Below are positions 38,280 to 61,809 of a DNA stretch of 64,000 bases, one piece after another. This DNA is from Candidatus Eremiobacteria bacterium (GTDB lineage: Bacteria; Vulcanimicrobiota; Vulcanimicrobiia; Vulcanimicrobiales; Vulcanimicrobiaceae). The stretch is from the NCBI GenBank assembly GCA_963758295.1, contig CAVWUU010000003.1:32001-96000 (forward strand), read 5' to 3'. The first letter of the stretch is position 1. Each line of letters begins with the position of its first letter. The translations under genes were made by a program, and so were the position numbers. The notes under the pieces were generated by a model. The model saw nothing but the letters and a program-made list of their open reading frames with translations. It had not been told where the DNA came from and did no database searches.

Positions 38280-40219
38280 ATGGTCATCGAAAGAGTGAAC
38301 TCCCCCGCCGATGTGAAGGCCCTCTCGCGCGAAGAACTCGACGTTCTCGCTCGCGAGATTCGCGATATGCTGGTCGTCACGTGTTCGCGCAACGGCGGAC
38401 ACTTGGCTCCGAACTTGGGCGTTGTCGAGCTTACGATTGCGTTGCACCGTATCCTCGATCTACCGAGCGACAAGCTGGTGTGGGACGTGAGCCATCAGGC
38501 CTACGTCCATAAAATTTTGACGGGCCGGCGCGACCGCTTTCACACGTTGCGCAAAGGCGGCGGCATTTCGGGCTTCGCGATGCGGAGCGAGTCGGAATAC
38601 GACATGTTTGGGGCCGGACACGCTTCCACGAGCGTCTCTTCAGCGCTCGGCATGGCAATTGCACGCGATCTGGCCGGACGCGAGGAAACGGTCGTTGCCG
38701 TTCTCGGCGACGGCGCGCTCACAGGCGGGCTTGCATACGAGGCGCTCAATAACGCCGGACAGCTGCACAGCAACTTCATCGTCATTCTCAACGACAACGA
38801 AATGTCGATCGCGCCCAACGTCGGCTCCATTGCGTCGTATCTTTCGGTATTACGCAGTAAGCCGCTTGCGAATTTCGTCCGCGAACGCGCGAAAGACGTG
38901 TTCCATCACATGCCGCTCGGCGGCGCGGCGCGCAAGGCTTTTGCCAGCGCCGAGATGGCGGCAATGCGCTTTGTATCGCCAACCGAAAAGACGGCCGTCA
39001 TTTTCGAAGAGCTCGGATTCCGCTACATGGGTCCGTTCGACGGTCACAACCTCGACGTCATGATCGACGCGTTGGAAACGGCGAAGGCGCTGGACGGCCC
39101 CGTACTCTTACACGTTCGCACGAAGAAGGGCAAGGGTTATGAGCCGGCCGAGCGCGATTCCCGCACGTTCCACGGCGTGGCGGTGCTTTCGACGTCGAAA
39201 ACGGCAAGCTCGAGGTAAAGCCGGATGCGCGCCCGACGTACTCCGACGTTTTTGCTGAAGCGTTAAATACCGTCGCCGAAAAAGACAAGCGTGTGATCGG
39301 CATAACCGCGGCAATGCCGGACGGTACGAAACTCTCGAAATTCGCCAAGAAGTTCCCCGAGCGGTTTTTTGACGTCGGGATCGCCGAAGCGCACGCGGTA
39401 TGCTTTGCCGCCGGTGCCGCCGCAACCGGACTGAAGCCGGTTTGCGCCATCTACTCGACCTTCTTGCAACGCGCGTACGATCAAGTCGTGCACGACGTTT
39501 GCGTGCAAAATCTTCCCGTAGTGTTTTGCATGGACCGCGCGGGACTCGTTGGTGACGACGGTCCGACGCATATGGGCCTCTACGACATCGCCTACATGCG
39601 CACGCTTCCGAATATGACGGTCATGGCGCCGCGCAACGAAGAAGAGATGTTGCCGATGCTGGAGCATGCGCTCAGCTTGAATGCGCCGGCAGCGATTCGT
39701 TATCCGCGCGGATCTTCCGGCGGACGCCATCGCGATACCGTCGCGCCCATCGTGCAAGGGAAAGCAGAAGTGCTTCGTGGCGGAAGCGGCGTGGCGATCT
39801 TGGCCCTCGGGAGCACGGTCGACATCGCGCTCGATGCCTACGACTTGCTCGCGAGCGGCGAGTTCGGACGTTCGGACCGTTTGCCGACCGTCGTGAACGC
39901 CCGTTTTGCCAAGCCGGTCGACGCGGCGTTAATCGAAGCGCTGAGCCGGGATCATTCGTTGATCTTGACGCTGGAAGAACATTCTCTCGCAGGCGGCTTC
40001 GGATCGGCGGTGGTAGAGGCCGCGTCGGACGCGCAATGGCCGGTCAAGATCGAGCGGGTGGGTATCGGCGACGTGCTCGTGCAGCACGATTCGCAGCCCG
40101 GCCAACGGGCGCTCTTCGGCCTTACGCCCCAAAAGATTGCCGAACGCGTCGCCGGCGTGCTTGGCGAGAACGACACCCCCGTGATACAATCCCGGGCGAT
40201 TTTTAGACAGGAGAACTAG
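38280..40219 (+). CDS. dxs: 1-deoxy-D-xylulose-5-phosphate synthase, frameshift near 39180
   Basis: GGHLAPNLGVVELT, GDGALTGGLAYEALNN, DVGIAEAHAV, DRAGLVGDDGPTH. Confidence 0.95.
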
Positions 40220-43119: not shown

Positions 43120-43677
43120 ATGCAAAACGACATGAATTCATTGCCCACTCGCGGCAACGATGCCGTTGAAATTCTAGTAAACGATCACCAGACCATCAAG
43201 AGCCTGCTCAGTGCGCTCACTTCGGATTCGTTTCAACAGCAACAAGCGACGTTGGAAAGCTTGAAAGCTGCCCTGACGATCCACAACGCGACCGAAGAGA
43301 ACCTTGTCTATCCCGCATTACGCGAGGTCGCCGGAAAGAAATCAGAGTCGCAACACCTTTATCAGGAGACGGCCGAAGCCGACGTACTGGTCTTCCAGCT
43401 CGACACGATGATCAAAACCGGGAATATCGACGAATTCCAAACCACGGCGAAAAAACTGCAGAAGGCCGTGCTCGAACACATTGAAGATGAAGAGCAGAAA
43501 GCTTTTCCGGCGCTGCAACAACGCGCCGATGGAAGCCAAGCCCGGATGCTCACCGACGCGGTTCGGCAATTCCGCGGCTCGCTTCACATGAAGGGCCAAA
43601 TGCCCTCCACGCAGGGCCGCATGGAAACCGGAGAAATCGCCGACACGAAGACGCAGCAAGGCTCAAGGATGAAGTGA
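43120..43677 (+). CDS. hemerythrin/HHE cation-binding domain protein
   Basis: DH...HNATEENLVYP...HIEDEEQKAFP. Confidence 0.8.
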   Translation: MQNDMNSLPTRGNDAVEILVNDHQTIKSLLSALTSDSFQQQQATLESLKAALTIHNATEENLVYPALREVAGKKSESQHLYQETAEADVLVFQLDTMIKTGNIDEFQTTAKKLQKAVLEHIEDEEQKAFPALQQRADGSQARMLTDAVRQFRGSLHMKGQMPSTQGRMETGEIADTKTQQGSRMK

Positions 43678-43713
43678 CCGATTCTTAGTCGGATGCTCTT
43701 TAACCGAAAAATG

Positions 43714-43744
43714 GCTCTCCGGTTTTTCGACCGGGGAGCTTTTT
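43714..43744 (+). terminator. intrinsic terminator
   Basis: GCTCTCCGGT...ACCGGGGAGC followed by TTTTT. Confidence 0.75.
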
Positions 43745-43824
43745 ATCTCCAAACGCCGTTCGTGGAAGCATCCAAGTCCCACTTCGCCCGTCCCTAAAAG
43801 CCCAACGTCGCTTTACACGTTGCT

Positions 43825-43851
43825 AAATCCATACGAAGTCCCGCGCCGTTG
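43825..43851 (+). promoter_or_regulatory. ECF-type promoter copy 1
   Basis: AAATCC-N16-CGTTG upstream of first DUF4331 gene. Confidence 0.65.
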
Positions 43852-43928
43852 GCGCAGTATCGGAATGGCGGATCGCCGGGTGTCGCGTCCAGCCGTATTC
43901 CGCGCAAGTCGTCTTTGGAGCAGCATCT

Positions 43929-44687
43929 ATGAAAACGCGAATACTTGGCGGTGTCGCGATGCTCGCATCTCTTGTTTTTGCCTTTGCGCTATATTCGAAC
44001 CATGCGGCAAAAGCTTCCGATCATCAGGACTCCCCAGTAACGCTGGGACGTCCCGGAGCAGACATCACCGACCCGTATATTTTTCCGGCACCCGATAATC
44101 CCAACAACGTCGTCCTCGTAATGAACGTTCATCCCCTCATTCCGAGCGGTCAAGGGCTTTCGACGTCTTTTGATCCCGGCGTTATCTATCAAATGAACTT
44201 CGACGGCGAATCAGAGAATACGAACGTCCCCGCGCAAGACGTCAACCAATCGTTCGTCATTCAGTTGGTGGCCGGCGCGCCCGGTGCCAATCAACCGATC
44301 TACATCAACGGTCCGGCACATCCCGCATCGCTGGGAAATGAGGCGACGCTGTTGCCGATGACCGGGCAAGGAACGATCAATAAATCGTTCACTGCCGGGC
44401 ACATGCAGATCTTTGCGGGTGCTCGAGAAGATCCGTTCTTCTTCGATCTCGCCCAATTTTTCAAGATTTTGCCCGATCGCATGGGCGGAAATCCCGCGCC
44501 GAGCTGTCTCCCCAAACTCGGCACGGGCTCTTGTTCCCAAGGTTTCAACAATCCCGGACAAGATTTTCTGGGCGGTTTCAACGTGCTTTCGATTGTCATC
44601 GAGATGCCGCGCGCCGACCTGATAGCGGGCTGCAATGGCCCCAAGATTGCATACTGGGTCACGACGTACACGTCGTCGGGAAGCTAG
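43929..44687 (+). CDS. exported DUF4331-family protein (N-terminal half)
   Basis: Signal AKA|SDHQDSP, ADITD, GAREDPFFFDL, DFLGGFNVLSIVIEMPR. Confidence 0.85.
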   Translation: MKTRILGGVAMLASLVFAFALYSNHAAKASDHQDSPVTLGRPGADITDPYIFPAPDNPNNVVLVMNVHPLIPSGQGLSTSFDPGVIYQMNFDGESENTNVPAQDVNQSFVIQLVAGAPGANQPIYINGPAHPASLGNEATLLPMTGQGTINKSFTAGHMQIFAGAREDPFFFDLAQFFKILPDRMGGNPAPSCLPKLGTGSCSQGFNNPGQDFLGGFNVLSIVIEMPRADLIAGCNGPKIAYWVTTYTSSGS

Positions 44688-44694
44688 GTGAATC

Positions 44695-45418
44695 GTGAAA
44701 TACGAATGGAACGCACGCGTATTAGTAATCCTAGGTGCATTACTGCTCGCCTCGTGCGGCGGCGGAGCCGGCGGACCCGCAAACAATAACGGCACGGGCC
44801 TCCCGGCTCCCGGCACGCCGTCGAATGCTAACCCCGAAATTTCCTCGGTCGGTGCGGGGCCGTACAAACAGCTGGATCGTTTGAATCGTCCGGCCGTAAA
44901 CGAAGTGTTTGCAACGTTTGCGGAGCATCAGGGGAACAATACCGATACGCCAAACGATGATGCGAAGATGCTTGGCCCGCAAATCATGGCGTTCATGACG
45001 AACGTCGGCGGCCGCAGCACCTCAATCGCATCGGTCGAGCGAGCCGTACTCACGCCTGACGTGCAAATAGCCGACTTGTCGGGAACGCAGCAACGCTTGC
45101 ATCGGCAAAGCCCCGGGGACGTGCAACAATTATCTTGGCGTCGAGACGAAGGGCGCAACCCAAATGCCGGCTGGATTGAAACCATTCGGTGGCCGTGCTC
45201 TTACCGACGATATCGTTTCCATCTCTCTCGGAACGATCTTCGGAAATACCATTCCGGCTCTGAAACTCGCGCCTGACGACAACAAGGAATCGGACGGACG
45301 CGCCGATGCGTCGTTTCCGTCCGGACATCGTCCCAACCTCACAACCGATAACGTCACCTGGCAAACGGCCCCGAAGCACTTCACCACGACGTTCCCCTAC
45401 CTTGGAGCACCGCGGTAA
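44695..45418 (+). CDS. DUF4331-family lipoprotein (C-terminal half), frameshift near 45090
   Basis: Lipobox LASC; QLDRLNRPAVNE, GGRALTDDIV, DNV...FPYLGAPR. Confidence 0.8.
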
Positions 45419-45420
45419 CA

Positions 45421-46776
45421 GTGCCCTTTCCGTTTCGCGGACGGTTAGCCGTAGCGGCGATTGCAGTTGGAGCAATCGCCGCATGGCCTCTCGTGAACGC
45501 CCATCGGCCCGCTGCTCCGGGAGCCTACGTTGCGCCCGTAGTTGCGGATTACGCGCAGCGGGACAAGACGATCGCCTTTTATGAGGCACGCGTTCGCGAA
45601 CATCCGCAAGACCAGATCAGCGCGAAGCTGCTCGCAGCGCAGTACATGCAGCGGTATCGGGAAGATCTAGACGTAGGCGATATCTTACGCGCCCTTCGCG
45701 AGGCTCAACTCTCCTTGAAGTTGCAGCCTCAAAACAATGCGGCGGCAAGCGAAATCGCTGCATCGGGCTATACGGCTCTCCATGAATTTAGAACGGCGTT
45801 GCGCTATGAAAAAGCGGCGCTTGCAGATCAGCCCGACGACTCCAACGCTCCCGCTCAAATGGCATCTCTCGAAATGGAGTTGGGGAATTATCAAGCCGCG
45901 TCGCGCGATTTGCGCCTCGCCTCGCACATTCGGAACACGTCGACCGTTATGGCCGTCCAAGCCCGTTACGATGAACTAACGGGGCGGCTTCCGGAAGCGC
46001 GCCGTTTAATTGCCGGAGCCTCCGCGCAGGTAGATGCGGTCGTCGACAACTCCGCTCAAGGGCGAGCTTGGTACCATTTTCGCGCGGGCGAACTGGCCTT
46101 CTCGGATGGCGACATAGACGAGGCGAAGGCGCAAGAGCGAACCGCACTTGCAGAGTTTCCCAATTTTGAAATGGCGTACCGGGCGCTGGCGCGCTTCTGC
46201 TGGGCGACAAAGGATTGGCCGTGCGCCTTGGATGCGGGATCGAAGGCTGCGGCGATCGTTCCCGAACCCGAAGCTCTAGGCTATGAAGCCGATGCGCAAG
46301 CCGCGCTTGGGCAGAGCGCCGAAGCCGACCGTACGCGCTCGCTGATTTTTGCCGTAGAAAAAATCGGCAACGCTTATCATCTGAACGATCGTCTTCTCGC
46401 CGTTTATTACTCAGAACATAAACTGCGCCAAGAAGACGCCTTACATATCGCCGAGCGGGAAGTGCGCGTTCGCGGAAACGAGATCTACGCTCAAGACACC
46501 CTTGCATGGGCGGCGGCGGCCGACGGAAAGTGGGGTCTAGCACGCCGCGCTGCTCGCAGCGCCACGCGATTCAACACGCAAGACCCGCGAATCGACTATC
46601 ACGCCGCGATTATCGCCCTGCATTTCGGCCACTCCGCCCAAGCACGGAGTCTCCTGAACGCGGCGCTGGCTAGAAATTCAGCCTTCGACCCGTTCTACGC
46701 AGACAGCGCGCGACTCACGCTGGCATCATTGCGTAGAAGCGAGCACGATCGTGTGCTTTTAACCGCTTGGCCGTAA
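45421..46776 (+). CDS. membrane-anchored/exported TPR protein
   Basis: N-terminal hydrophobic segment and repeated Ala-rich TPR helices (DTLAWA, YHAAII). Confidence 0.8.
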   Translation: MPFPFRGRLAVAAIAVGAIAAWPLVNAHRPAAPGAYVAPVVADYAQRDKTIAFYEARVREHPQDQISAKLLAAQYMQRYREDLDVGDILRALREAQLSLKLQPQNNAAASEIAASGYTALHEFRTALRYEKAALADQPDDSNAPAQMASLEMELGNYQAASRDLRLASHIRNTSTVMAVQARYDELTGRLPEARRLIAGASAQVDAVVDNSAQGRAWYHFRAGELAFSDGDIDEAKAQERTALAEFPNFEMAYRALARFCWATKDWPCALDAGSKAAAIVPEPEALGYEADAQAALGQSAEADRTRSLIFAVEKIGNAYHLNDRLLAVYYSEHKLRQEDALHIAEREVRVRGNEIYAQDTLAWAAAADGKWGLARRAARSATRFNTQDPRIDYHAAIIALHFGHSAQARSLLNAALARNSAFDPFYADSARLTLASLRRSEHDRVLLTAWP

Positions 46777-46802
46777 GGAAGCAGAAGGTTCTTTGAAACA
46801 TA

Positions 46803-46829
46803 AAATCCATTGGCCCCAGTTCGCCGTTG
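46803..46829 (+). promoter_or_regulatory. ECF-type promoter copy 2
   Basis: AAATCC-N16-CGTTG upstream of GGAGGAG RBS and TTG at 46871. Confidence 0.65.
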
Positions 46830-46870
46830 AAGCGTTAAAAGCTGAAGTAAGAAACGAACGGAGGAGCGGT

Positions 46871-48400
46871 TTGCGCGGACGGATTGCACGTTGGCTTTTC
46901 GGTATCGCGTTTGCGGTTGCGAATGCGACCGGCGTTGCCGCGGCACATCCGCTAGGAAACTTCACGATCAATCACCTCGTAAAAGTTCAGCCGTCCCAAA
47001 AGGCCCTAAAGCTGCGTTACGTGCTCGACATCGCGGAAATTCCAACTTTTCAGATTATGCGCGGGACCTCGGCCGGTGCGCTTTGGAATGCGGCGCAACT
47101 CGATGCGTGGGGGAGCTCTGAAGTTCCGGCGGTCACGAGTGGACTCCATGTTCAGGTAGACGGTTCTCCGGTGGTCCTGAGCCTTTTGAGGCGGAACGAG
47201 AAGCTGCGCCCGGGCGCGGGAGGCCTGCCGATTCTTTATTGGACCGCGGATTTCACGGCGCCTTTGGCACCCGGAACGCATCGCGTGAACATCGATGACG
47301 GCGTATACAACGACCACCGGATCGGGTGGAAAGATATCGTGGTTTCGCCCCAAACGGAACCCACGCACGAACTGCTTCGATATCCGAGCGCGCTGATCGG
47401 TTCGCCGCGCCACGTAACGAGCGTTTCATTCGACATTTCGGCCGGCGGGGCGGCGCAGTCGATCGTCGCTTCGACAGACGGCCTTCCCGACGTGAACGGA
47501 TCGGCCTCAATCGTTCGTTCCAACGCGCTTTCCGATATGTTTTCCAACGGAAATCGTACGCCGGTCTTCGTGCTGCTAACCGTTCTCGTCGCCTTTGGCT
47601 TAGGCGCGTTGCACGCGATAGAACCGGGTCATGGAAAAGCGCTCCTGGCGTTCACGCTCGTTGGATCGCGCGCTACCGTGAAGCAGGCAACAATCCTCGC
47701 AGCGTCCTTGACGTTCGCGCATACGGCCGGCGTATTGGTCTTGGGAATCGTGCTGTTCTTCGCTGCCGGCTTCGTTTCGGAATCGATCTATCCGTGGATT
47801 ACGTTGCTTTCGGGCGTTGCGGTGGCTATCATCGGAGCGCGAAATCTTTCGCGTTATTTGAGAGCGTGTAGCCTGCACGCTCACGCGGCCGGGCACCTTC
47901 ACTCTCACGGTTTTACCGACGACCACCATCATGGTGAAGAAGACCACGGACATTCGCACGCCGTTCCGGGAACGGGGCCGATTGATTTTAGAGGCGCAGT
48001 CGTGGCGGCGATGAGCGGCGGCGTTGCGCCTTGTCCGGCTGCAATCGTCGTGATGTTGGCAGCGTTGCGTCTGCACCAACTGGGATACGGCCTGTTGCTG
48101 ATCGTCGTCTTTAGCCTTGGTCTTGCCTCGGTACTCACGGCGCTTGGGATCGCCGTGGTGCACGGGTCGGCGTTCGTAACGAAAAGCGGGAAATTCGATC
48201 GCCTCGTTTCGGCGGGACCGTTGCTTTCGGCGGCCCTGATCTCGATAGTCGGCGCCGTTATGGTCGGCCAAGGATTCGTCGCTCAGGGCGTTCGAGCTCC
48301 TGTGTGGATTCTCGCCGGACTGGTCGCTTTGGCAATCGCCGGATACGGCCTTGCGCCGCAACACAATCACTCGCACGCGCCGGAGCAGCAGCCCGTATGA
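46871..48400 (+). CDS. RcnA-like Ni/Co transporter with exported N-terminal domain
   Basis: AAA|HPLGNFTINH, GALHAIEPGHGK, His-rich loop, PCPAA. Confidence 0.85.
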   Translation: MRGRIARWLFGIAFAVANATGVAAAHPLGNFTINHLVKVQPSQKALKLRYVLDIAEIPTFQIMRGTSAGALWNAAQLDAWGSSEVPAVTSGLHVQVDGSPVVLSLLRRNEKLRPGAGGLPILYWTADFTAPLAPGTHRVNIDDGVYNDHRIGWKDIVVSPQTEPTHELLRYPSALIGSPRHVTSVSFDISAGGAAQSIVASTDGLPDVNGSASIVRSNALSDMFSNGNRTPVFVLLTVLVAFGLGALHAIEPGHGKALLAFTLVGSRATVKQATILAASLTFAHTAGVLVLGIVLFFAAGFVSESIYPWITLLSGVAVAIIGARNLSRYLRACSLHAHAAGHLHSHGFTDDHHHGEEDHGHSHAVPGTGPIDFRGAVVAAMSGGVAPCPAAIVVMLAALRLHQLGYGLLLIVVFSLGLASVLTALGIAVVHGSAFVTKSGKFDRLVSAGPLLSAALISIVGAVMVGQGFVAQGVRAPVWILAGLVALAIAGYGLAPQHNHSHAPEQQPV

Positions 48401-49195
48401 TTTTTACGAATGCTTTTACGGTTTACGCTCTTGGGCTGCGGCATGGCGCTGATCCCGACCATTTGGCGGCGATCGATAACTTGACTCGTAACTCTCTGAC
48501 GCGCGCGCCGAAGATCTCGCGGTTCATAGGGGCGCTTTTTGCGGGCGGCCATAGCGTCATGGTTCTTGCCATTGCAGCGCTTGTGGGCTACCTTGGCACT
48601 CGGTTCGTCGCGCAAGGCGCTGCAATCGAGAAAGCCGGCACGTGGATTTCCATTGTCGTACTTATCGCCATTGCCGCTAATCAATATCCGGCAATTGCGG
48701 AAGGGGCAAAACGATCGCGTATTCGGCCTCAAAACGCGGCTAATGCCGCGCGCGTTACGCAACGGAACATCGCCCTGGCTGGCGGTGCCGGTCGGACTGC
48801 TTTTTGGATTCGGATTCGAAACCTCCAGTCAAATCGCGACTTATGCAGTGGCGTTTGCGGCTGACGCGGGCGTTGCGGGCGCGCTTGTCGTCGGCTCGAT
48901 GTTTTGCGCGGGGATGGTATGCACCGATACCCTGGATTCACTCTTCATCCATCGTATCGTCTCGTATCGGGCCGGGGACTTGCCGCGTCTTATGCGGGTT
49001 TGGATCTGGTCCGTAACGCTTTTCGCCATCGCGGTTGCGGCGTATGAGCTTGCGCAAGTTCTCGGTTGGAAGCCGCCCGTATCCGATCTAACCGTTAGCA
49101 TTGTCTTAGTCTCATCGCTGGCGGCCGTTTTTGCGTGGATTTTTATGGCAACGCGATCTTCCGCCGGTACCGAACCGCAATTGGAGCATACGTAA
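48397..49195 (+). CDS. NiCoT (HoxN/NixA) high-affinity nickel permease, frameshift near 48680
   Basis: LGLRHGADPDHLAAIDNLTR, GHS, GLLFGFGFETSSQ, GMVCTDTLD. Confidence 0.88.
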
Positions 49196-49216
49196 AGCAA
49201 ATGGCGATAGGCGAGG

Positions 49217-49243
49217 AAATCCGCTGACGTCGCCTCCGCGTTG
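49217..49243 (+). promoter_or_regulatory. ECF-type promoter copy 3
   Basis: AAATCC-N16-CGTTG ending 9 nt before ATG 49253. Confidence 0.65.
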
Positions 49244-49252
49244 AACGACATC

Positions 49253-50530
49253 ATGAAAAAATACTACTCGGCAATTTTAGGCGCCGCGGTAATGATGCTC
49301 CTCGGCGTCGTTGCGGCACTTTACGGCGCAACTTTCACCCGTGCTTCCGATCATCAGGATTCACCGCTCACGGTGGGGCGGCCGGGAGCCGATATCACCG
49401 ACGTTTTCCTTTTCCCGGCTGCAAATCCGAAAAACGTGGTGCTTGCGATGGACGTGCACCCGTTGATCCCTGCCGGACTGAGCGATTCCGCGGCCTTCGA
49501 TCCTTCGGTAATGTATCAATTCAAAATCGATACGGCGGGAAGCTACCGGGAAAATAAAGTTATTCAGTTTCGCGCGGTCGGCGCAGGGGCCGCGCAGTAC
49601 CTTCAAATGTACGGACCGGCGGCGCCTGTTATGGCCGGAACAGCATCGCGCTGGGTAGGCTCGCCGCAAACGATCGCATTGAACCGTGTAACGCGATTGC
49701 CCGGCGGCATCAGCGTTTTTGCCGGTCCTCGACGGGAACCGTTTTATTTCGATTTGGCGCAGTTCTTCAAGATCGTGCCGGATAGAAACTTCAAAAGTCA
49801 GCCGCATCCGCCGATTGCTACGGCCAATTGTTTTCGAAAGCCGGATGTCGATTTCTTCCGAAATTACAACGTCCTTGCGCTGGCAGTGGAATTGCCGCGG
49901 ACCATGTTGGCTGCGCCGAGCGGCAAACTTGGGGTAATTCACCTGTATACTACGACCTCGCTTTCGCAGGGCTCGGGCGAATACGAACAGGTGGAACGTT
50001 TAGGGCGTCCGGCCATCAAAGAAACCTTCGAAACGTTCTCTGATCACGATGCCAGCAATCGCCGTTCGCCGTGGAATGACTCGGAGTTATCGCATTCGAT
50101 CGTCGCGTTTATGACGGCGCCTTCGCCGAATGGCGCGGGACGATCGCGTGAACTTGCCTCTGCGGTAGAAAAAGTGCTGATACCGGACGAACTCACGGCC
50201 GACCTTAGCGCACCCGGGCCGGCTGCCTATTTGGCTGTCGAAACGAAGGGCAAAAGCGCGCTCCCGACCGGCATCGTTCGTGTCGTACCGGAGGCCGGGC
50301 TTAAAGGCCTCAAAAAGTCGATTGCCAACAGGTCGCGCGATTTCGGCGGTCGAGATCTTTCGAGCCCCGTGATCGATCTTTCGCTCGGCGTAATTTTTGG
50401 TTCGCTCGGTCAAAAAGTTGGACTGGCAAAAGATGACGGGAAAGAAACCGCCTGTCTCACGAGCGACAACGTCGATGCAGGCTCTCGAGGCATTACTACC
50501 TCATTTCCGTATTACGGAGCGCCGATCTAA
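49253..50530 (+). CDS. exported full-length DUF4331-family protein
   Basis: TRA|SDHQDSP, ADITD, GPRREPFYFDL, QVERLGRPAIKE, GGRDL, FPYYGAP. Confidence 0.85.
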   Translation: MKKYYSAILGAAVMMLLGVVAALYGATFTRASDHQDSPLTVGRPGADITDVFLFPAANPKNVVLAMDVHPLIPAGLSDSAAFDPSVMYQFKIDTAGSYRENKVIQFRAVGAGAAQYLQMYGPAAPVMAGTASRWVGSPQTIALNRVTRLPGGISVFAGPRREPFYFDLAQFFKIVPDRNFKSQPHPPIATANCFRKPDVDFFRNYNVLALAVELPRTMLAAPSGKLGVIHLYTTTSLSQGSGEYEQVERLGRPAIKETFETFSDHDASNRRSPWNDSELSHSIVAFMTAPSPNGAGRSRELASAVEKVLIPDELTADLSAPGPAAYLAVETKGKSALPTGIVRVVPEAGLKGLKKSIANRSRDFGGRDLSSPVIDLSLGVIFGSLGQKVGLAKDDGKETACLTSDNVDAGSRGITTSFPYYGAPI

Positions 50531-50539
50531 GCGCGCATT

Positions 50540-50746
50540 TTAGCGGCTGCGCCGCAGTGCGCTCCCTTGCGATCGCAGCCGCCGCGCGATTTCGTCGTCG
50601 TCGAAGCGCTCGAGAAAGTCCTCGATGGCTGCTTCGGCGAGCGCCGACACGGAAACGGCATGCGTTGCTTTGAACGCGGTAAGCCGGCCGGCAAGGCGAT
50701 GTGGGATCGTGATCGTTAGACGTTTGAGGGACACCCGGGCTCTCAT
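50540..50746 (-). CDS. small ribbon-helix-helix-like regulator
   Basis: KRLTITIP beta strand followed by two helices (SVSALAEAAIEDFL). Confidence 0.6.
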   Translation of the reverse strand: MRARVSLKRLTITIPHRLAGRLTAFKATHAVSVSALAEAAIEDFLERFDDDEIARRLRSQGSALRRSR

Positions 50747-50755
50747 TACGAGTCT

Positions 50756-50782
50756 TAACGAACGGCGTCGTCTTTCAGATTT
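50756..50782 (-). promoter_or_regulatory. ECF-type promoter copy 4 (variant)
   Basis: Minus strand AAATCT-N16-CGTTA ending 9 nt before the RHH ATG. Confidence 0.55.
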
Positions 50783-50819
50783 ACTTGCTAATCATACGAA
50801 ACCCGGGTATTAAAACTCG

Positions 50820-51362
50820 GTGAGCGCCGTTGCGGAGATCAAAGACGACTTCGAGCTTTTCTACCGGCAATATCGGCCGCTCGTTTATGCCGTCGCTTTC
50901 AAAATCGTCCGAAACGCGCTTGACGCTGAAGACACCGTGCAAACGGTCTTCCTTAAAGTATGGAGCCGGCCCGGCGCATATCGCGGAGGAAACATCGAGA
51001 GCTGGCTCACTACGGTTACGAAGAACGCTTCGCTCGATTGCGTGCGACAATCGTGGCGTGTGAGCCCGTTCGCCTCTGCCGATGGGTATGCTGGCCGCCT
51101 TTCGCCGGGCGAAGACCTCCGGACCCGCGACTGCCGGGCGGCGGAAGATGAGGCCGTGCATCGCATCTCGGTCGCCGCGGTAATGAATGCCCTTGCGGAC
51201 CTCTGTCCCGAACAACGCGCCGCGATTGTAGCGGCCTTTGTGAAACAACAAACCCACCGGGGCATAGCCGACGGATCTTGTTTACCGCTCGGAACCGTGA
51301 AGACGCGCATTCGTTCGGGACTCGCGAAGCTGCGCCGTCGCTTCTCCGAAGAAGCGCCATAA
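50820..51362 (+). CDS. ECF sigma factor (SigK-like)
   Basis: DAEDTVQTVFLKVW, WLTTVTKNASLD, PLGTVKTRIRSGLAKLR. Confidence 0.9.
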   Translation: MSAVAEIKDDFELFYRQYRPLVYAVAFKIVRNALDAEDTVQTVFLKVWSRPGAYRGGNIESWLTTVTKNASLDCVRQSWRVSPFASADGYAGRLSPGEDLRTRDCRAAEDEAVHRISVAAVMNALADLCPEQRAAIVAAFVKQQTHRGIADGSCLPLGTVKTRIRSGLAKLRRRFSEEAP

Positions 51363-51368
51363 AAAGCG

Positions 51369-51393
51369 AAGGCGATCGCTCTGCGATCGCCTT
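51369..51393. terminator. bidirectional terminator hairpin
   Basis: AAGGCGATCGC-tct-GCGATCGCCTT between convergent genes, with an A-run upstream. Confidence 0.7.
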
Positions 51394-51418: not shown

Positions 51419-51901
51419 TTAGGCCTTCTTGCGACGGCCGCCGCGCGCGGCTTTTTTACGGCCTCCTGCGGCTTTACGCGTCGTTGCCTTTTTGCGTCCG
51501 CCGGTTGCCTTACGCGTCGTCTTCTTGCGTCCGCCGGTGGACTTTTTACGTCCGCCTGCCGCTTTTTTGCGTCCTGCGGTTTTCTTGCGTCCGCCGGTCG
51601 CCTTTTTGCGGCCGCCCGTCGACTTCTTGCGTCCTGCGGTCTTCTTTCTTCCGCCGGCTGCCTTTTTGCGTCCGCCGGTCGACTTCTTGCGTCCTGCGGT
51701 TTTTTTGCGTCCGCCGGTCGCCTTTTTCCGTCCGCCGGCGGCTTTCTTACGTCCGCCTGCGGCTTTACGTCCAGCGGTTTTCTTGCGTGCGCCGGTGGCT
51801 TTTTTACGGCCGCCCGTCGATTTGCGTCCTGCGGTTTTCTTACGTCCGCCGGCTGATTTGCGGCGGCTCGATTTGCGGCGCGTTCCGGATTCTTCGGCCA
51901 T
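51419..51901 (-). CDS. histone H1-like Lys/Arg-rich repeat protein
   Basis: MAEESGTRRKSS then tandem (G)GRKK(T/A/S)(A/T) units to the stop. Confidence 0.75.
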   Translation of the reverse strand: MAEESGTRRKSSRRKSAGGRKKTAGRKSTGGRKKATGARKKTAGRKAAGGRKKAAGGRKKATGGRKKTAGRKKSTGGRKKAAGGRKKTAGRKKSTGGRKKATGGRKKTAGRKKAAGGRKKSTGGRKKTTRKATGGRKKATTRKAAGGRKKAARGGRRKKA

Positions 51902-52036
51902 CGTGCCACCGTTCATCATGGTATCGGAGTCCATTCATTCCTCCTCGTCCCCCGGGGGACGAACAGCATTAATTATTGGACAGCGCAAAATGCGCTTTAA
52001 GCGCACTATAAAGGATTTTTGCAAATCATGCAAATC

Positions 52037-52233: not shown

Positions 52234-54367
52234 GTGAAAAAGCCCCTGATCATCGTCGAGTCGCCGACCAAGGCTCGGACGATCAAGAAGTTTCTCCCCG
52301 CGCGGTACGTCGTGAAGGCGTCCGTCGGTCACGTCCGCGATCTGCCGAAGAGTACGCTGGGTGTCGACGTGGAGCACGACTTCACGCCGAAGTATCTAAC
52401 GATCAAAGGCAAAGGCGACATTATCAAGGAGCTCAAGAGCGCGGTCAAAGGCGCGAGCGAAGTGTACCTCGCCACCGACCCCGATCGCGAAGGCGAAGCG
52501 ATTGCGTGGCACCTAGCCGAGCTGCTCAAGCTCGAGAACCCCAAGCGCATCGAGCTCCACGAGATTACTAAGGATGCCGCGCTCGCCGCTTTGAAGGACG
52601 CGCACCACATCGACATGGATCGCGTGAACGCGCAACAGGCGCGCCGCATCCTGGACCGTCTTGTTGGATACAAGATCTCGCCGCTGCTGTGGGCTAAGGT
52701 TCGCGGCGGCTTGTCGGCCGGTCGCGTGCAGTCGGTGGCGGTGCGGCTCATCGTGGATCGGGAACGCGAAATCGGCGCCTTCGTTCCAAAAGAGTATTGG
52801 ACCGTTACGGCTCAGTTGGCGAGAGACACGAAGAGCGATCTGGTGTTCCTTGCCGACCTGGTGGCCTTCAAGGGCGAGAAATACGAGATCCGTACAAAGG
52901 AAGAAACGGATCGGGTTCTAGAGGCGATCGATGGTGCACCCTTTACAATCGACTCGATCAAACGCCGAGAAGTAAAGCGAAATGCGCCGGCGCCCTTCAC
53001 GACTTCGACGCTCCAGCAAGAGGCCTCGCGCAAACTGCGAATCCGCGTGCGGCGCGCCATGCAAATCGCACAGGCGCTGTACGAAGGCGTAGATCTCGGC
53101 GGCTCCGAGGGCACCGTCGGTTTGATTACGTACATGCGTACCGACTCGACGCGCATCAGCGATCAGGCGCGGGAAGCGGCTCGCGAATTCATCGTCGACA
53201 CGTACGGCGAAGCGTTTCACGGCGGACGCCAACATAAGGTAAAAGAAGGCGCACAGGACGCGCACGAAGCGATCCGGCCTACCTCGGTTTTGCACACTCC
53301 GGAAAAAGTCGCGCACGTCCTCAAGCGCGACGAACTGCGTCTCTACACGATGATTTGGGAGCGGTTCGTCTCCTCGCAGATGGCCCCGGCGGTCTTCGAT
53401 CAGACGACTGTGGAAATCAAGGTCGCGCGATTACGGTTTCCGCGCGACCGGTAGCGTCATGAAGTTCGCGGGTTTCACCAAGGTGTACGAAGAGGGCCGC
53501 GATGAGGACGGCAAACAGCGCGGACGCGTACGGCTGCCGGAACTCACCGAGGGCGAAGTGCTCGACGTCCGTGCGATCGACCCGAAGCAGCACTTCACCG
53601 AACCCCCGCCGCGCTTCACCGAAGCCACGCTCGTCAAAGCGCTTGAAGAGAACGGCATCGGCCGGCCGTCGACGTACTCGACGATCGTCGATACGATCCA
53701 AGCTCGCGGCTACGTAACGCAAGAAGAACGGCGCTTCAAACCCACCGACATCGGCATCGCCGTGAACGATTTGCTGGCCGAGCATTTCAAAGACATCGTC
53801 GATCTCAAGTTCACGGCGGGCATGGAAGGCGACCTCGATAAAGTAGCCGAGGGCCACGAAGACTGGGTCGGGATTCTGCGCAGCTTCTACGGACCGTTTG
53901 CGACCGAACTCGAAGAAGCCGAGAAGAAACTTCCCAAGCTCGAAGTCAAAGACGAGCCGACCGACGAGATCTGCCAGAATTGCGCACGGCCCATGGTCAT
54001 CAAGACCGGACGTTTCGGCAAATTCATCTCGTGCACGGGCTATCCCGAATGCAAGACGACCAAACCGATCGTCAAAGACACGGGAGCGAAATGCCCCAAA
54101 GACGGCGGCATGATCGTGGAACGCCGGTCCAAGAAGGGACGCACGTTCTACGGCTGCGCAAATTATCCGAACTGCGACTTCGTGTCGTGGGATCGCGTAA
54201 TCCCCGAGCCCTGTCCGGTGTGCGGAAGCTACGTCGTCGCAAAGACGCGGCGCGGCGGCAACGTGCATCTGGAGTGTGCGGCGGATAAGGAACACGACGT
54301 GTCGTCGCTCGTGAAGCCCGCGCCGGGCGAAGAACCGACGGACGACCGGGAACTCGCCGAAGTTTGA
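52234..54367 (+). CDS. topA: DNA topoisomerase I, frameshift near 53425
   Basis: IVESPTKA, ATDPDREGEAIAWH, SAGRVQS, ITYMRTDS, GIGRPSTY, C4 zinc ribbons. Confidence 0.96.
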
Positions 54368-58501: not shown

Positions 58502-58978
58502 ATGAATATCCGAACCCTTTTCCTAGGACTGGCACTCGGAAGCGGAGTGCTCCTCGCCGCATGTGGCGGCGGAACGACCGTAACGGGTCCGACACCTGGT
58601 CCGACGTGCGGACCGGCCAACATTCAATCGGAGCTGATTTATCCGCAGCCCAGTGCAACCGGGGTTACGGACAATCTTGCGCAGATTGTGATTGCCGTAA
58701 GCTCCCCGTTGCCGATCAATACGTTCAACCTTGCGTTGACCGCCTTGAACAACGGCGGTGGAACGGCTCTAACGGCGAACCCGCTCGCCCAGATTTCGGC
58801 GAGCCAGCTTCCGGCCGGGTCTGCAACGGCGACCATTCCGAACCCGACGTACGAAGCAGTGAATCTCATCGCGAATCTTCCGTCGGCTACTCAGATCCAA
58901 ACCGCCATCAACGATCCCGGCAACCCTAACAACTGCACGCCCCAAAATATTCCAAACGGCACTTTCACTACCCAGTAG
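58502..58978 (+). CDS. hypothetical lipoprotein
   Basis: Lipobox LAAC; Ig-like beta content ending GTFTTQ. Confidence 0.75.
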   Translation: MNIRTLFLGLALGSGVLLAACGGGTTVTGPTPGPTCGPANIQSELIYPQPSATGVTDNLAQIVIAVSSPLPINTFNLALTALNNGGGTALTANPLAQISASQLPAGSATATIPNPTYEAVNLIANLPSATQIQTAINDPGNPNNCTPQNIPNGTFTTQ

Positions 58979-60477: not shown

Positions 60478-61809
60478 CCGGCGCACGCGACGTAGCCCTC
60501 CAAACGGTGCGCGATGTATTTCCGGCGCCACCGCAAAGCGTCGAGCGCGGCGCTCAAGAAGCGCTCGATTATCGCGCGCAAAAAGTAAGTCTCGAGCCGC
60601 GCGATCGTGCGTTTGCCACCGAACTTGCCTACGGCGCCATCAAGATGCGTCGCACGCTAGATTGGTATTTGCAACCTTTTATCGGCGGACGCGAACAGCC
60701 GCTGCCGCCCGTGATTCGTGAAGTCTTGCGTCTGGCGGTTTACGAACTCGTTTACACGCGTCCGGACGTGCACGCCACGGTCTTTGAATGGGTCAACGTG
60801 GCGAAACGTTACGGGCACCGCGGCGTCGCAAATCTCGTAAACGCCGTGTTACGTTCGTTCTTGCGCGATACGCCGCTGGAACCGTCACGCGAAAGTTTCG
60901 AAAGTGAAGAAGAGTACCTAGGAACGCGCTATTCGCTTCCCACGTGGCTGGTTCGCCAATGGCAAACCGTCTTCGGTGAACGCGCAGAGACGATTTGCGA
61001 AGCCGTGAACGCGCCGGCCGCAACCGCCATCACCGTAAACGGTTGTAAGACCACCGCGTTCGACCTGCTCGAGCGCTTGCGCAGCGATAAAGTGGAAGTC
61101 GAGCCGTCGACGTGGGTAGGTGAATCGCTGCTGGTCGGTGACGGCGGCTACGTCCGCCGCAAAGAGCCCTGCGGCAAAAGGCGAATGGTGGATTCAATCC
61201 GAGAGTTCGGCCATGCCGGTCGACATCATGAATCCGCAACCCGGTGAGGCCGTCCTCGACGTCTGCAGCGGGCGCGGCAATAAGGCGATGCAAACCGCTT
61301 CGCGCATGCAGGCCGAGGGCACGCTGACGTGTATCGAACGCGAAGAAAAGAAGGCCTCCGTCCTCCAAACGCGGATGCAAGAAGCCGGCTTATCCGCGGC
61401 GGTCATCGTCGGCGACGCCGCACAACCGGTGCTGCCCGAAGGCAAACGCTTCGACCGCGTCCTCATCGACGCGCCGTGTTCCGGCATCGGAGTCATCGGA
61501 CGGCACCCCGAAGCGCGCTGGAAGAAGCAGCCGGGCGACGGCGAACGTCTCGCCGGGACGCAGCGCGCAATTCTGGAAAGCATTGCCTCTGCGGTCTTCG
61601 AGGGCGGTGCGCTAATTTATGCGGTGTGCTCCACCGACCCGAGAGAAACGGTCGAAGTGGTCGACGCGTTTTTGGCAGGGCAGCAGTTCGAACGCGGGCT
61701 CATCCCCGCGTCTTACGAAGCGTTCCTCACCGAAAGCGGCGACGTTTTGATTCCCCCGGGGATCGAAGGACGGGACGGATTCTACATCGCGAGGCTGGAG
61801 CGCCGCTAA
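60474..61809 (+). CDS. rsmB: 16S rRNA m5C967 methyltransferase (NusB-like N-terminus), frameshift near 61170
   Basis: ELAYG, NAVLR; LDVCSGRGNK, DAPCSGIG, YAVCS, DGFYIARL. Confidence 0.9.

Follow-up and report, generated by a model that had tools for sequence, protein, structure and literature searches.

A DUF4331/nickel-permease module in Candidatus Eremiobacteria carries four probable ECF promoters attributed mainly to an RskA-linked SigK encoded on another contig

Overview

We analysed a 64,000-nucleotide stretch of DNA (the window) from Candidatus Eremiobacteria bacterium (GenBank assembly GCA_963758295.1, contig CAVWUU010000003.1, positions 32,001 to 96,000; the genome is called G000 below), in which four copies of a bipartite site lie before genes for exported DUF4331 proteins, a tetratricopeptide-repeat (TPR) protein, two NicO-family permeases and a small ribbon-helix-helix (RHH) protein. 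Judged from sequence and conservation, the four sites are very likely to be promoters of an extracytoplasmic function (ECF) sigma factor. Their best explanation, which we hold to be probable, is that they are read mainly by core SigK, a SigK-like sigma factor linked to an RskA-type anti-sigma factor and encoded on another contig, and that they would switch on an exported module that probably handles nickel or copper. In the proposed mechanism an envelope signal would free SigK from RskA; SigK would recognise ATC(C/T) as −35 and CGTT as −10 element, transcribing six units, its own operon among them. The exported products would bind a transition metal through the histidine-bearing N-termini of the mature proteins and would pass it to the two permeases.

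The comparisons use 49 stretches around DUF4331 genes, taken from 33 of the 39 relatives with a DUF4331 match. The unpublished genome G004 served for a start-codon check, one orphan sigma copy, the G000–G004 pair for nonsynonymous to synonymous substitution ratios (dN/dS) and a case in which the RHH gene is absent, and the unpublished G224 served for one orphan copy. Excluding the unpublished genomes leaves the main counts standing; as kin are not independent, no p-value is given across genomes. Locus L084 was dropped as identical to L064, the truncated L175 was dropped, and the unpublished genomes were left out of the RHH count. L064 (G017:C39) and L084 (G046:C2) come from genomes of different families and have the same module DNA, which suggests mis-binning or recent transfer; they were counted once.

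Sites in the window

The element AAATCC-N16-CGTTG occurs three times on the forward strand, and a variant lies on the reverse strand.

43825–43851, forward strand: predicted SigK-type promoter 1, AAATCC-N16-CGTTG, heading the unit of two DUF4331 half genes and the TPR gene; the G003 ortholog has the same site.
46803–46829, forward strand: predicted SigK-type promoter 2, heading the two NicO-family permease genes.
49217–49243, forward strand: predicted SigK-type promoter 3, before the single-chain DUF4331 gene.
50756–50782, reverse strand (read from 50782 to 50756): predicted SigK-type promoter 4, AAATCT-N16-CGTTA, before the RHH gene.

The gap from the end of the site to the start codon is 77 nt at site 1 (ATG 43929), 41 nt at site 2 (TTG 46871) and 9 nt at both site 3 (ATG 49253) and site 4 (ATG 50746). 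The sequence thus agrees with the earlier note in its description of four bipartite sites with N16 spacers of unrelated sequence, two of them ending 9 nt before an ATG, and the spacers vary freely among relatives too. In the G017 and G021 orthologs the promoter 3 site lies 51–53 nt upstream. A terminator-like hairpin (43713–43740) precedes promoter 1, and a sigma-70 scan gave no match 5′ of the module genes. The permease start had been moved in the same note from 46793 to 46871, and this revision is supported: GGAGGAG lies just upstream, the codon is TTG in G003 and ATG in G004, and in-frame stops lie upstream in G002 and G003.

The pattern AAATCY-N16-CGTT has six matches in the window against 0.41 expected, and none of 100 shuffles reaches six, a significance that is overstated because the pattern was picked after the data were seen. 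The two additional matches are less well supported: the one at 58771 is antisense within a lipoprotein open reading frame (ORF) and the one at 60830 is unranked by the matrix described below. Over the whole genome (3.03 Mb) the excess of the motif is small, with 27 matches at N16 versus 9–22 at other spacers, and matrix matches number 37 at N16 versus 24–40. The genome-wide scan proposed earlier thus finds the motif barely enriched overall; it is the intergenic, correctly oriented matrix matches that stand out, with six at N16 versus 0–3 at other spacers, which points to a small regulon. The genome-wide counts are weak, and the weight is carried only by the position-filtered and ortholog counts.

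Conservation before orthologous genes

Across relatives the motif takes the form (A/C)ATC(C/T)-N16-CGTT. Within 100 nt 5′ of the RcnA-like permease gene, ATC(C/T)-N16-CGT is found in the sense orientation at 25 of 28 loci (24/27 without G004); other spacers give 0–3 and the antisense orientation 1/28. Among DUF4331 genes, those that come first or follow a gap of 60 nt or more have the motif in 17 of 44 cases and internal ones in 1 of 13, and the internal TPR and NicT-like genes have it in 1/34 and 0/29, respectively. Its placement at operon heads and its rarity before internal genes form a promoter pattern. The controls, topA and an ATP-binding cassette (ABC) ATPase gene, have the motif in 2/19, within 230 nt. 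Conservation before orthologs, which the earlier note had named as a test, is strong, extending across three families, and it supports the claim that the sites tie these genes into one regulon.

The same counts bear on two readings in which the sites are not promoters. Chance matches could be argued from the slight genome-wide enrichment and the after-the-fact choice of pattern, but conservation with unrelated spacers before orthologs in three families effectively refutes them, and we give them a negligible probability. We also regard it as most unlikely that a transcription factor, for instance the RHH protein, binds at the motif and that this is its role. The RHH gene in the module does carry the site itself; against this, the motif is bipartite and non-palindromic, resembles ECF18/ECF19 promoters, keeps a fixed 16-nt spacer and is strictly directional (25 sense against 1 antisense), and it is present in G002, where RHH had no match.

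Extent of the regulon

Taking 47 sites of relatives as the training set, with G000 and G004 left out, we built a matrix and applied it to G000 using our own gene calls. Its six intergenic upstream matches are the four window sites, the site before core sigK and a site before the gene at C1:607272–607898, so the predicted regulon reaches beyond the window. We accordingly predict from these sites a regulon of six units, namely the four window units, sigK–rskA and the following gene.

G000:C1:607272–607898 (L146:3272–3898): 208-residue, likely exported protein with a likely signal peptide, all-helical; predicted sixth regulon member.

Of 29 usable ortholog loci, 27 keep the motif before this gene (30 loci, of which a truncated one was dropped; two are from unpublished genomes). 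The protein has matches in 53 of 61 genomes and invariant His162, His165 and His185. It belongs to no Pfam family and has no fold match above Z 3.5, and the Atlas search returned only unnamed clusters, below 0.8.

Core SigK and the other ECF sigma factors

The sigma search in G000 gave 18 sigma-2 matches, of which two concern us in this section.

G000:C1:547124–547660: core sigK, a SigK-like ECF sigma-factor gene with close matches in most relatives; rskA follows it.
G000:C2:189312–189923 (L012): RskA_N-linked ECF sigma-factor gene with a conserved motif of its own.

The best PDB sequence match of core SigK is Mycobacterium tuberculosis SigK (4NQW). The adjacent gene scores above the RskA_C cut-off in the orthologs of G002, G021 and G049; in G000 it is present (C1:546344–547127) but in two frames. 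In G000, core sigK is itself preceded by ACAATCT-N16-CGTTA, and the motif stands before it at every one of the 29 loci in families f1 and f2 (28/28 without G004), in 26 of the 29 within 100 nt. All 28 genomes with both the module and core sigK have a site before a module gene (27 within that distance, G052 just outside it), and in 24 of these no orphan sigma of the kind encoded at 50820 was found.

In family f3 the site before core sigK is ATC(C/T) at 6 of 17 loci and AGCC at 10, and one has none. Where f3 core sigK has AGCC (for example at L113, L114, L120, L129 and L134), the module promoters keep ATCC. Co-variation of the module promoters with that of sigK itself is thereby ruled out in this family, and the AGCC form may tune autoregulation down.

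Core sigK was not found in five genomes that are 91–97% complete (G007, G009, G015, G019 and G035; best identities 33–40%, from other clades), and none of their DUF4331 genes has the motif before it. Instead, all five carry AGGCTTT-N12/13-GCGTA 11–12 nt before the DUF4331 ATG (L053:5331, L054:9343, L061:16033, L065:10635 and L076:11042).

The C2 sigma factor might read the sites, alone or by cross-talk. It too has a conserved upstream element, TCATCC-N16/17-GGCGT(T/A), in 14 of 20 orthologs. These sites differ from those of the module, however: TCATC with GG is found in 11 of the 14 versus none of 19 module sites, and each of the four sites in the window favours the core matrix by 10–18 bits. 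At E ≤ 1e-35 the C2 factor is found in 0/5 f2 and 1/19 f3 genomes, where the motif persists. We consider this reading very unlikely. In genus g1 the spacer of the C2 element folds into a terminator-like hairpin, with a T run after it; since the site is conserved, a mere terminator artefact is ruled out.

Several points weigh against our attribution to core SigK and a metal-related output. G015, in which core sigK was not found, keeps the site before its 208-residue ortholog; the loss in the five genomes may be a single event, and if they form one lineage there is, with the G015 exception, one supporting event and one counter-example. There is a third SigK-like ECF whose motif is related, and the 47 training sites were chosen with a pattern derived from the window. 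The frameshift in rskA, if a real break, would make the regulon constitutive in this strain. Since the orphan at 50820 keeps the same recognition helix, sequence cannot tell which sigma factor works harder in G000. The metal function rests on neighbouring genes and N-terminal motifs, and the folds gave no functional match. For the related RpoP of Cupriavidus metallidurans, the portion of PMC13492112 available reports no start site behind the predicted promoter.

Regarding the frameshift, rskA is not alone in G000: the window genes at 44695–45418 and 48397–49195, topA (52234–54367) and a dxs-like gene (38280–40219) are likewise in two frames. A comparison with ten G002 proteins flagged two frameshifts, to which rskA adds a third. 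The split frames are probably assembly indels.

The adjacent orphan sigma factor

The sigma gene nearest to the module had been proposed in the earlier note as the driver of all four promoters.

50820–51362, forward strand: orphan SigK paralog with no anti-sigma factor and no promoter of its own type, keeping the PLGT(V/I)KTRIR helix.
50787–50810, forward strand: putative SigB/SigF-like element upstream of the orphan sigma gene, GCTAA-N13-GGGTAT.

That part of the earlier proposal is not supported in the form given. Orphan copies number at least ten in 348 genomes of the family, eight from a protein search (11 matches, three of them core sigK) and two via an RHH search; only nine candidates per genome were scored, so some copies may be missed. 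None of the ten has an adjacent RskA gene and none has the motif upstream. In the closest relatives, G002 (92% complete) and G003 (61%), the module, its sites and the same flanking genes are kept and the orphan is missing from the locus; 24 genomes have the motif without it. In most genomes that have the orphan, its neighbour is the module or the RHH gene of the module. It is not decaying: its dN/dS is about 0.1–0.2, a sign of purifying selection, versus 0.05 for core sigK (dS is near saturation). The recognition helix is kept in 8/8 orphans and the region-2 Asp in 7/8; we take this region-4.2 helix and Asp to read the −35 element and the C of CGT, respectively. The chance that the orphan can read the same promoters appears to us about even, and it is unlikely to be their dedicated or dominant reader. 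The orphan clade, patchy in its distribution and fast-evolving, is separate and long-branched, with support of 99/94 (eight rows) and 0.988 (ten rows), although long branches can group falsely. By descent it is a SigK; with no RskA gene at +1 in 10/10 it is not a canonical ECF18/ECF19 member.

The putative promoter before the orphan appears to be of a different kind. GGGTA(T/C) lies 9–14 nt before the start in six of eight orphans, and G149 and G099 have GTTTAA-N14-GGGAA; the SigB consensus is GTTTAA-N12-14-GGG(A/T)A(A/T) in the available part of PMC8346170. Several copies can also be read as a housekeeping −10 element (TANNNT). G000 encodes a group-3 sigma factor, and among 100 intergenic GGGTA(T/C) sites in this genome ten match (C/T)TA-N14-GGGTA(T/C), versus 0–4 at other spacings. 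This class, which includes a stress protein of the KGG type and an RsbW-like gene (labels assigned by eye), suggests a SigB/SigF general-stress regulon. Standing behind such a promoter, the orphan would serve as a second input that is optional, with the core driver elsewhere.

Three further features were observed near these elements. The upstream region of the orphan (50785–50810) resembles site 1 (43819–43851), sharing TTGCTAA..ATC..ATACGAA..CCCG, by chance or through an old duplication. The window hemerythrin gene (43120–43677) has GGGTAT 41 nt upstream. A Lys/Arg-rich repeat histone-like protein, encoded at 51419–51934 on the reverse strand, converges on the orphan, with which it shares a hairpin (51369–51393).

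The RHH gene and possible feedback

50540–50746, reverse strand: small ribbon-helix-helix protein, predicted regulon member.

RHH_1 is above cut-off in four homologs and weak in the G000 copy. Among the top 18 public loci, 11 have the motif 9–16 nt before the RHH start and two more have an N17 variant; none of the seven weakest loci has it. Because the gene often lies near core sigK–rskA where there is no orphan, it is to be counted with the regulon rather than solely with the orphan. Within the SigB/SigF-like element of G000 a candidate RHH site, TAATCATAC, occupies 50789–50797. The corresponding TAATCAYAC follows the −35 element in six orphan promoters, each of them close to an RHH gene, and is missing from that of G004, where the RHH gene is lacking; elsewhere, partly overlapping loci that total 1.8 Mb have it at only two places, and G000 has it at two. 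This distribution hints at possible RHH feedback on the orphan promoter. A palindromic operator, TCATAC-N9-GTAT, was also considered and is weakened, its right half being GGGTAY, which is absent in G149 and G099. That the RHH protein, a predicted regulon member, also acts as a feedback repressor is a possibility that we put forward tentatively, as less likely than not.

Taken together, these elements could form a two-input regulon, in which SigK–RskA would respond to an envelope or metal signal, a duplicated, anti-sigma-less SigK of unchanged promoter specificity under SigB/SigF control would provide the second input, with a SigK-induced RHH protein acting back negatively on that copy by binding TAATCAYAC within its promoter, and the output would be Ni/Cu capture by DUF4331 tips like the amino-terminal Cu(II)/Ni(II)-binding (ATCUN) motif and a NicO permease with an N-terminal His (His1). 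As a whole, this scheme is speculative and rather doubtful.

Module genes and a possible role in metal handling

43929–44687, forward strand: N-terminal half of DUF4331 (Pfam PF14224), predicted cleavage between A-K-A and S-D-H.
44695–45418, forward strand: C-terminal half of DUF4331, lipoprotein-like start, frames 44695–45276 and 45164–45418; PF14224 matches both pieces.
45421–46776, forward strand: TPR-repeat exported protein, profile matches below curated cut-offs.
46871–48400, forward strand: RcnA/NicO-family permease with an exported N-terminal domain (PF03824; PRK10019 below cut-off).
48397–49195, forward strand: HoxN/NixA/NicT-type permease (PF03824; TIGR00802 below cut-off), frameshifted here and in one frame in G002.
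49253–50530, forward strand: single-chain DUF4331 (PF14224), predicted cleavage between T-R-A and S-D-H.

The two-gene split of DUF4331 recurs in many relatives. Cleavage sites, judged by eye, place small-x-small before SDH in DUF4331, and SDH is present in 111 of 114 aligned homologs; this tip resembles what we take to be an ATCUN-type X-X-His pattern. In the RcnA-like protein Ala is followed by HPLGNF at 28/28 loci, so that cleavage between A-x-A and HPLGNF would leave a mature protein starting with His. The DUF4331 copies of the five genomes in which core sigK was not found have no N-terminal SDH histidine. In four of the five a Fur-box-like GCAAATC(A)TT lies further upstream and the DUF4331 gene faces an operon of the ZnuABC type; ZnuA was confirmed in three, and two have a Fur-family gene.

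The model of DUF4331 (predicted local distance difference test score 91.7) is an immunoglobulin (Ig)-like sandwich with no clear PDB match; the best hit of the fold search was Sas6 (Z 7.5, root-mean-square deviation 5.4, 200 residues aligned), the others being generic Ig-like or CBM9/DOMON-like folds. The RcnA-like N-terminal domain gave no sequence match to solved structures. On the neighbouring genes and terminal motifs we lean slightly towards metal capture and uptake as the function of the module; the alternatives are efflux and the supply of metal to an exported metalloprotein. In G208 a small exported Met-rich ORF (L148:11057–11600) with a SigK-type site is divergent from the RcnA-like gene.

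Implications

The locus is a clear case in which a sigma gene lies close by and yet the best candidate for the driver is another one. Six promoters and one sigma/anti-sigma pair give a concrete predicted regulon for a widespread domain in a little-studied soil phylum, and a protein without family or fold match joins it. With its Ni/Cu-type permeases and its exported proteins tipped by His, the cargo suggests metal as a candidate signal for RskA, a signal called unknown in the accessible text of PMC7509140. If the second input is real, the orphan would represent a regulon that gained it by sigma duplication and anti-sigma loss. Besides correcting the driver, the locus thus adds a six-unit regulon with a family-less member, a natural case of loss and swap, and an orphan-sigma/RHH cassette.

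Comparison with known systems

The promoter type and the SigK–RskA switch are already known; the regulon has not been described before. A search for DUF4331, with or without a sigma factor, found nothing in the main texts of a collection thin in subscription journals; a supplement of PMC7826278 lists DUF4331 as a neighbour of ECF18s13 and ECF214s1. The papers compared below were available in part, and likenesses and differences refer to those parts.

Published motifs are TGCATCTT/CGTA for ECF18 and ATC/CG for ECF19 (PMC7826278, supplement part 8) and GCATCC/CGTAT for RpoP (PMC13492112). The site before sigK, with an ATC −35 and a CG(T) −10 element, agrees in sequence with the ECF18/ECF19 motifs. 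Core SigK has the SigK–RskA trait of an RskA-like anti-sigma factor at +1. Its assignment to ECF18 was rejected, as it has no cysteine whereas ECF18 has two sigma-4 cysteines and is confined to Proteobacteria; the cysteine pair is not defining for ECF19 (PMC7826278). With the SigK–RskA systems of Mycobacterium and ECF18/ECF19 (PMC7826278, PMC7509140, PMC4105308) it shares an ECF sigma factor with an RskA-like anti-sigma factor with a zinc-finger-type N-terminus, an ATC(C) −35 and CG(T) −10 promoter, and a small regulon of exported proteins at few loci. The cargo differs, being DUF4331, TPR, two NicO permeases, RHH and the helical 208-residue protein instead of fasciclins. Unlike Mycobacterium SigK, core SigK can form no sigma-4 disulfide, having no cysteine, and here a second, anti-sigma-less paralog lies at the cargo locus. 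RpoP of C. metallidurans is a Proteobacterial ECF18 with conserved cysteines, unlike core SigK (PMC13492112, PMC7826278).

A canonical ECF sigma factor paired with an anti-sigma-less copy is seen in EcfG1/EcfG2 of alphaproteobacteria, which share target promoters and act in series or in parallel (PMC3892343, PMC7083833). They belong to another ECF group with another motif; here the extra copy lacks the promoter of its own family and has a SigB/SigF-like element and an RHH partner. The anglerase-permeases Ang-1/Ang-2 have an exported domain predicted to start with His, fused to a nickel-type permease, and metal capture and uptake have been proposed for them; the His1 domains joined in this way to nickel permeases bind Cu or Ni (PMC12537917). 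Their permease is HupE/UreJ-2, whereas that of the present module is of the NicO/RcnA family, with metal binding that is predicted.

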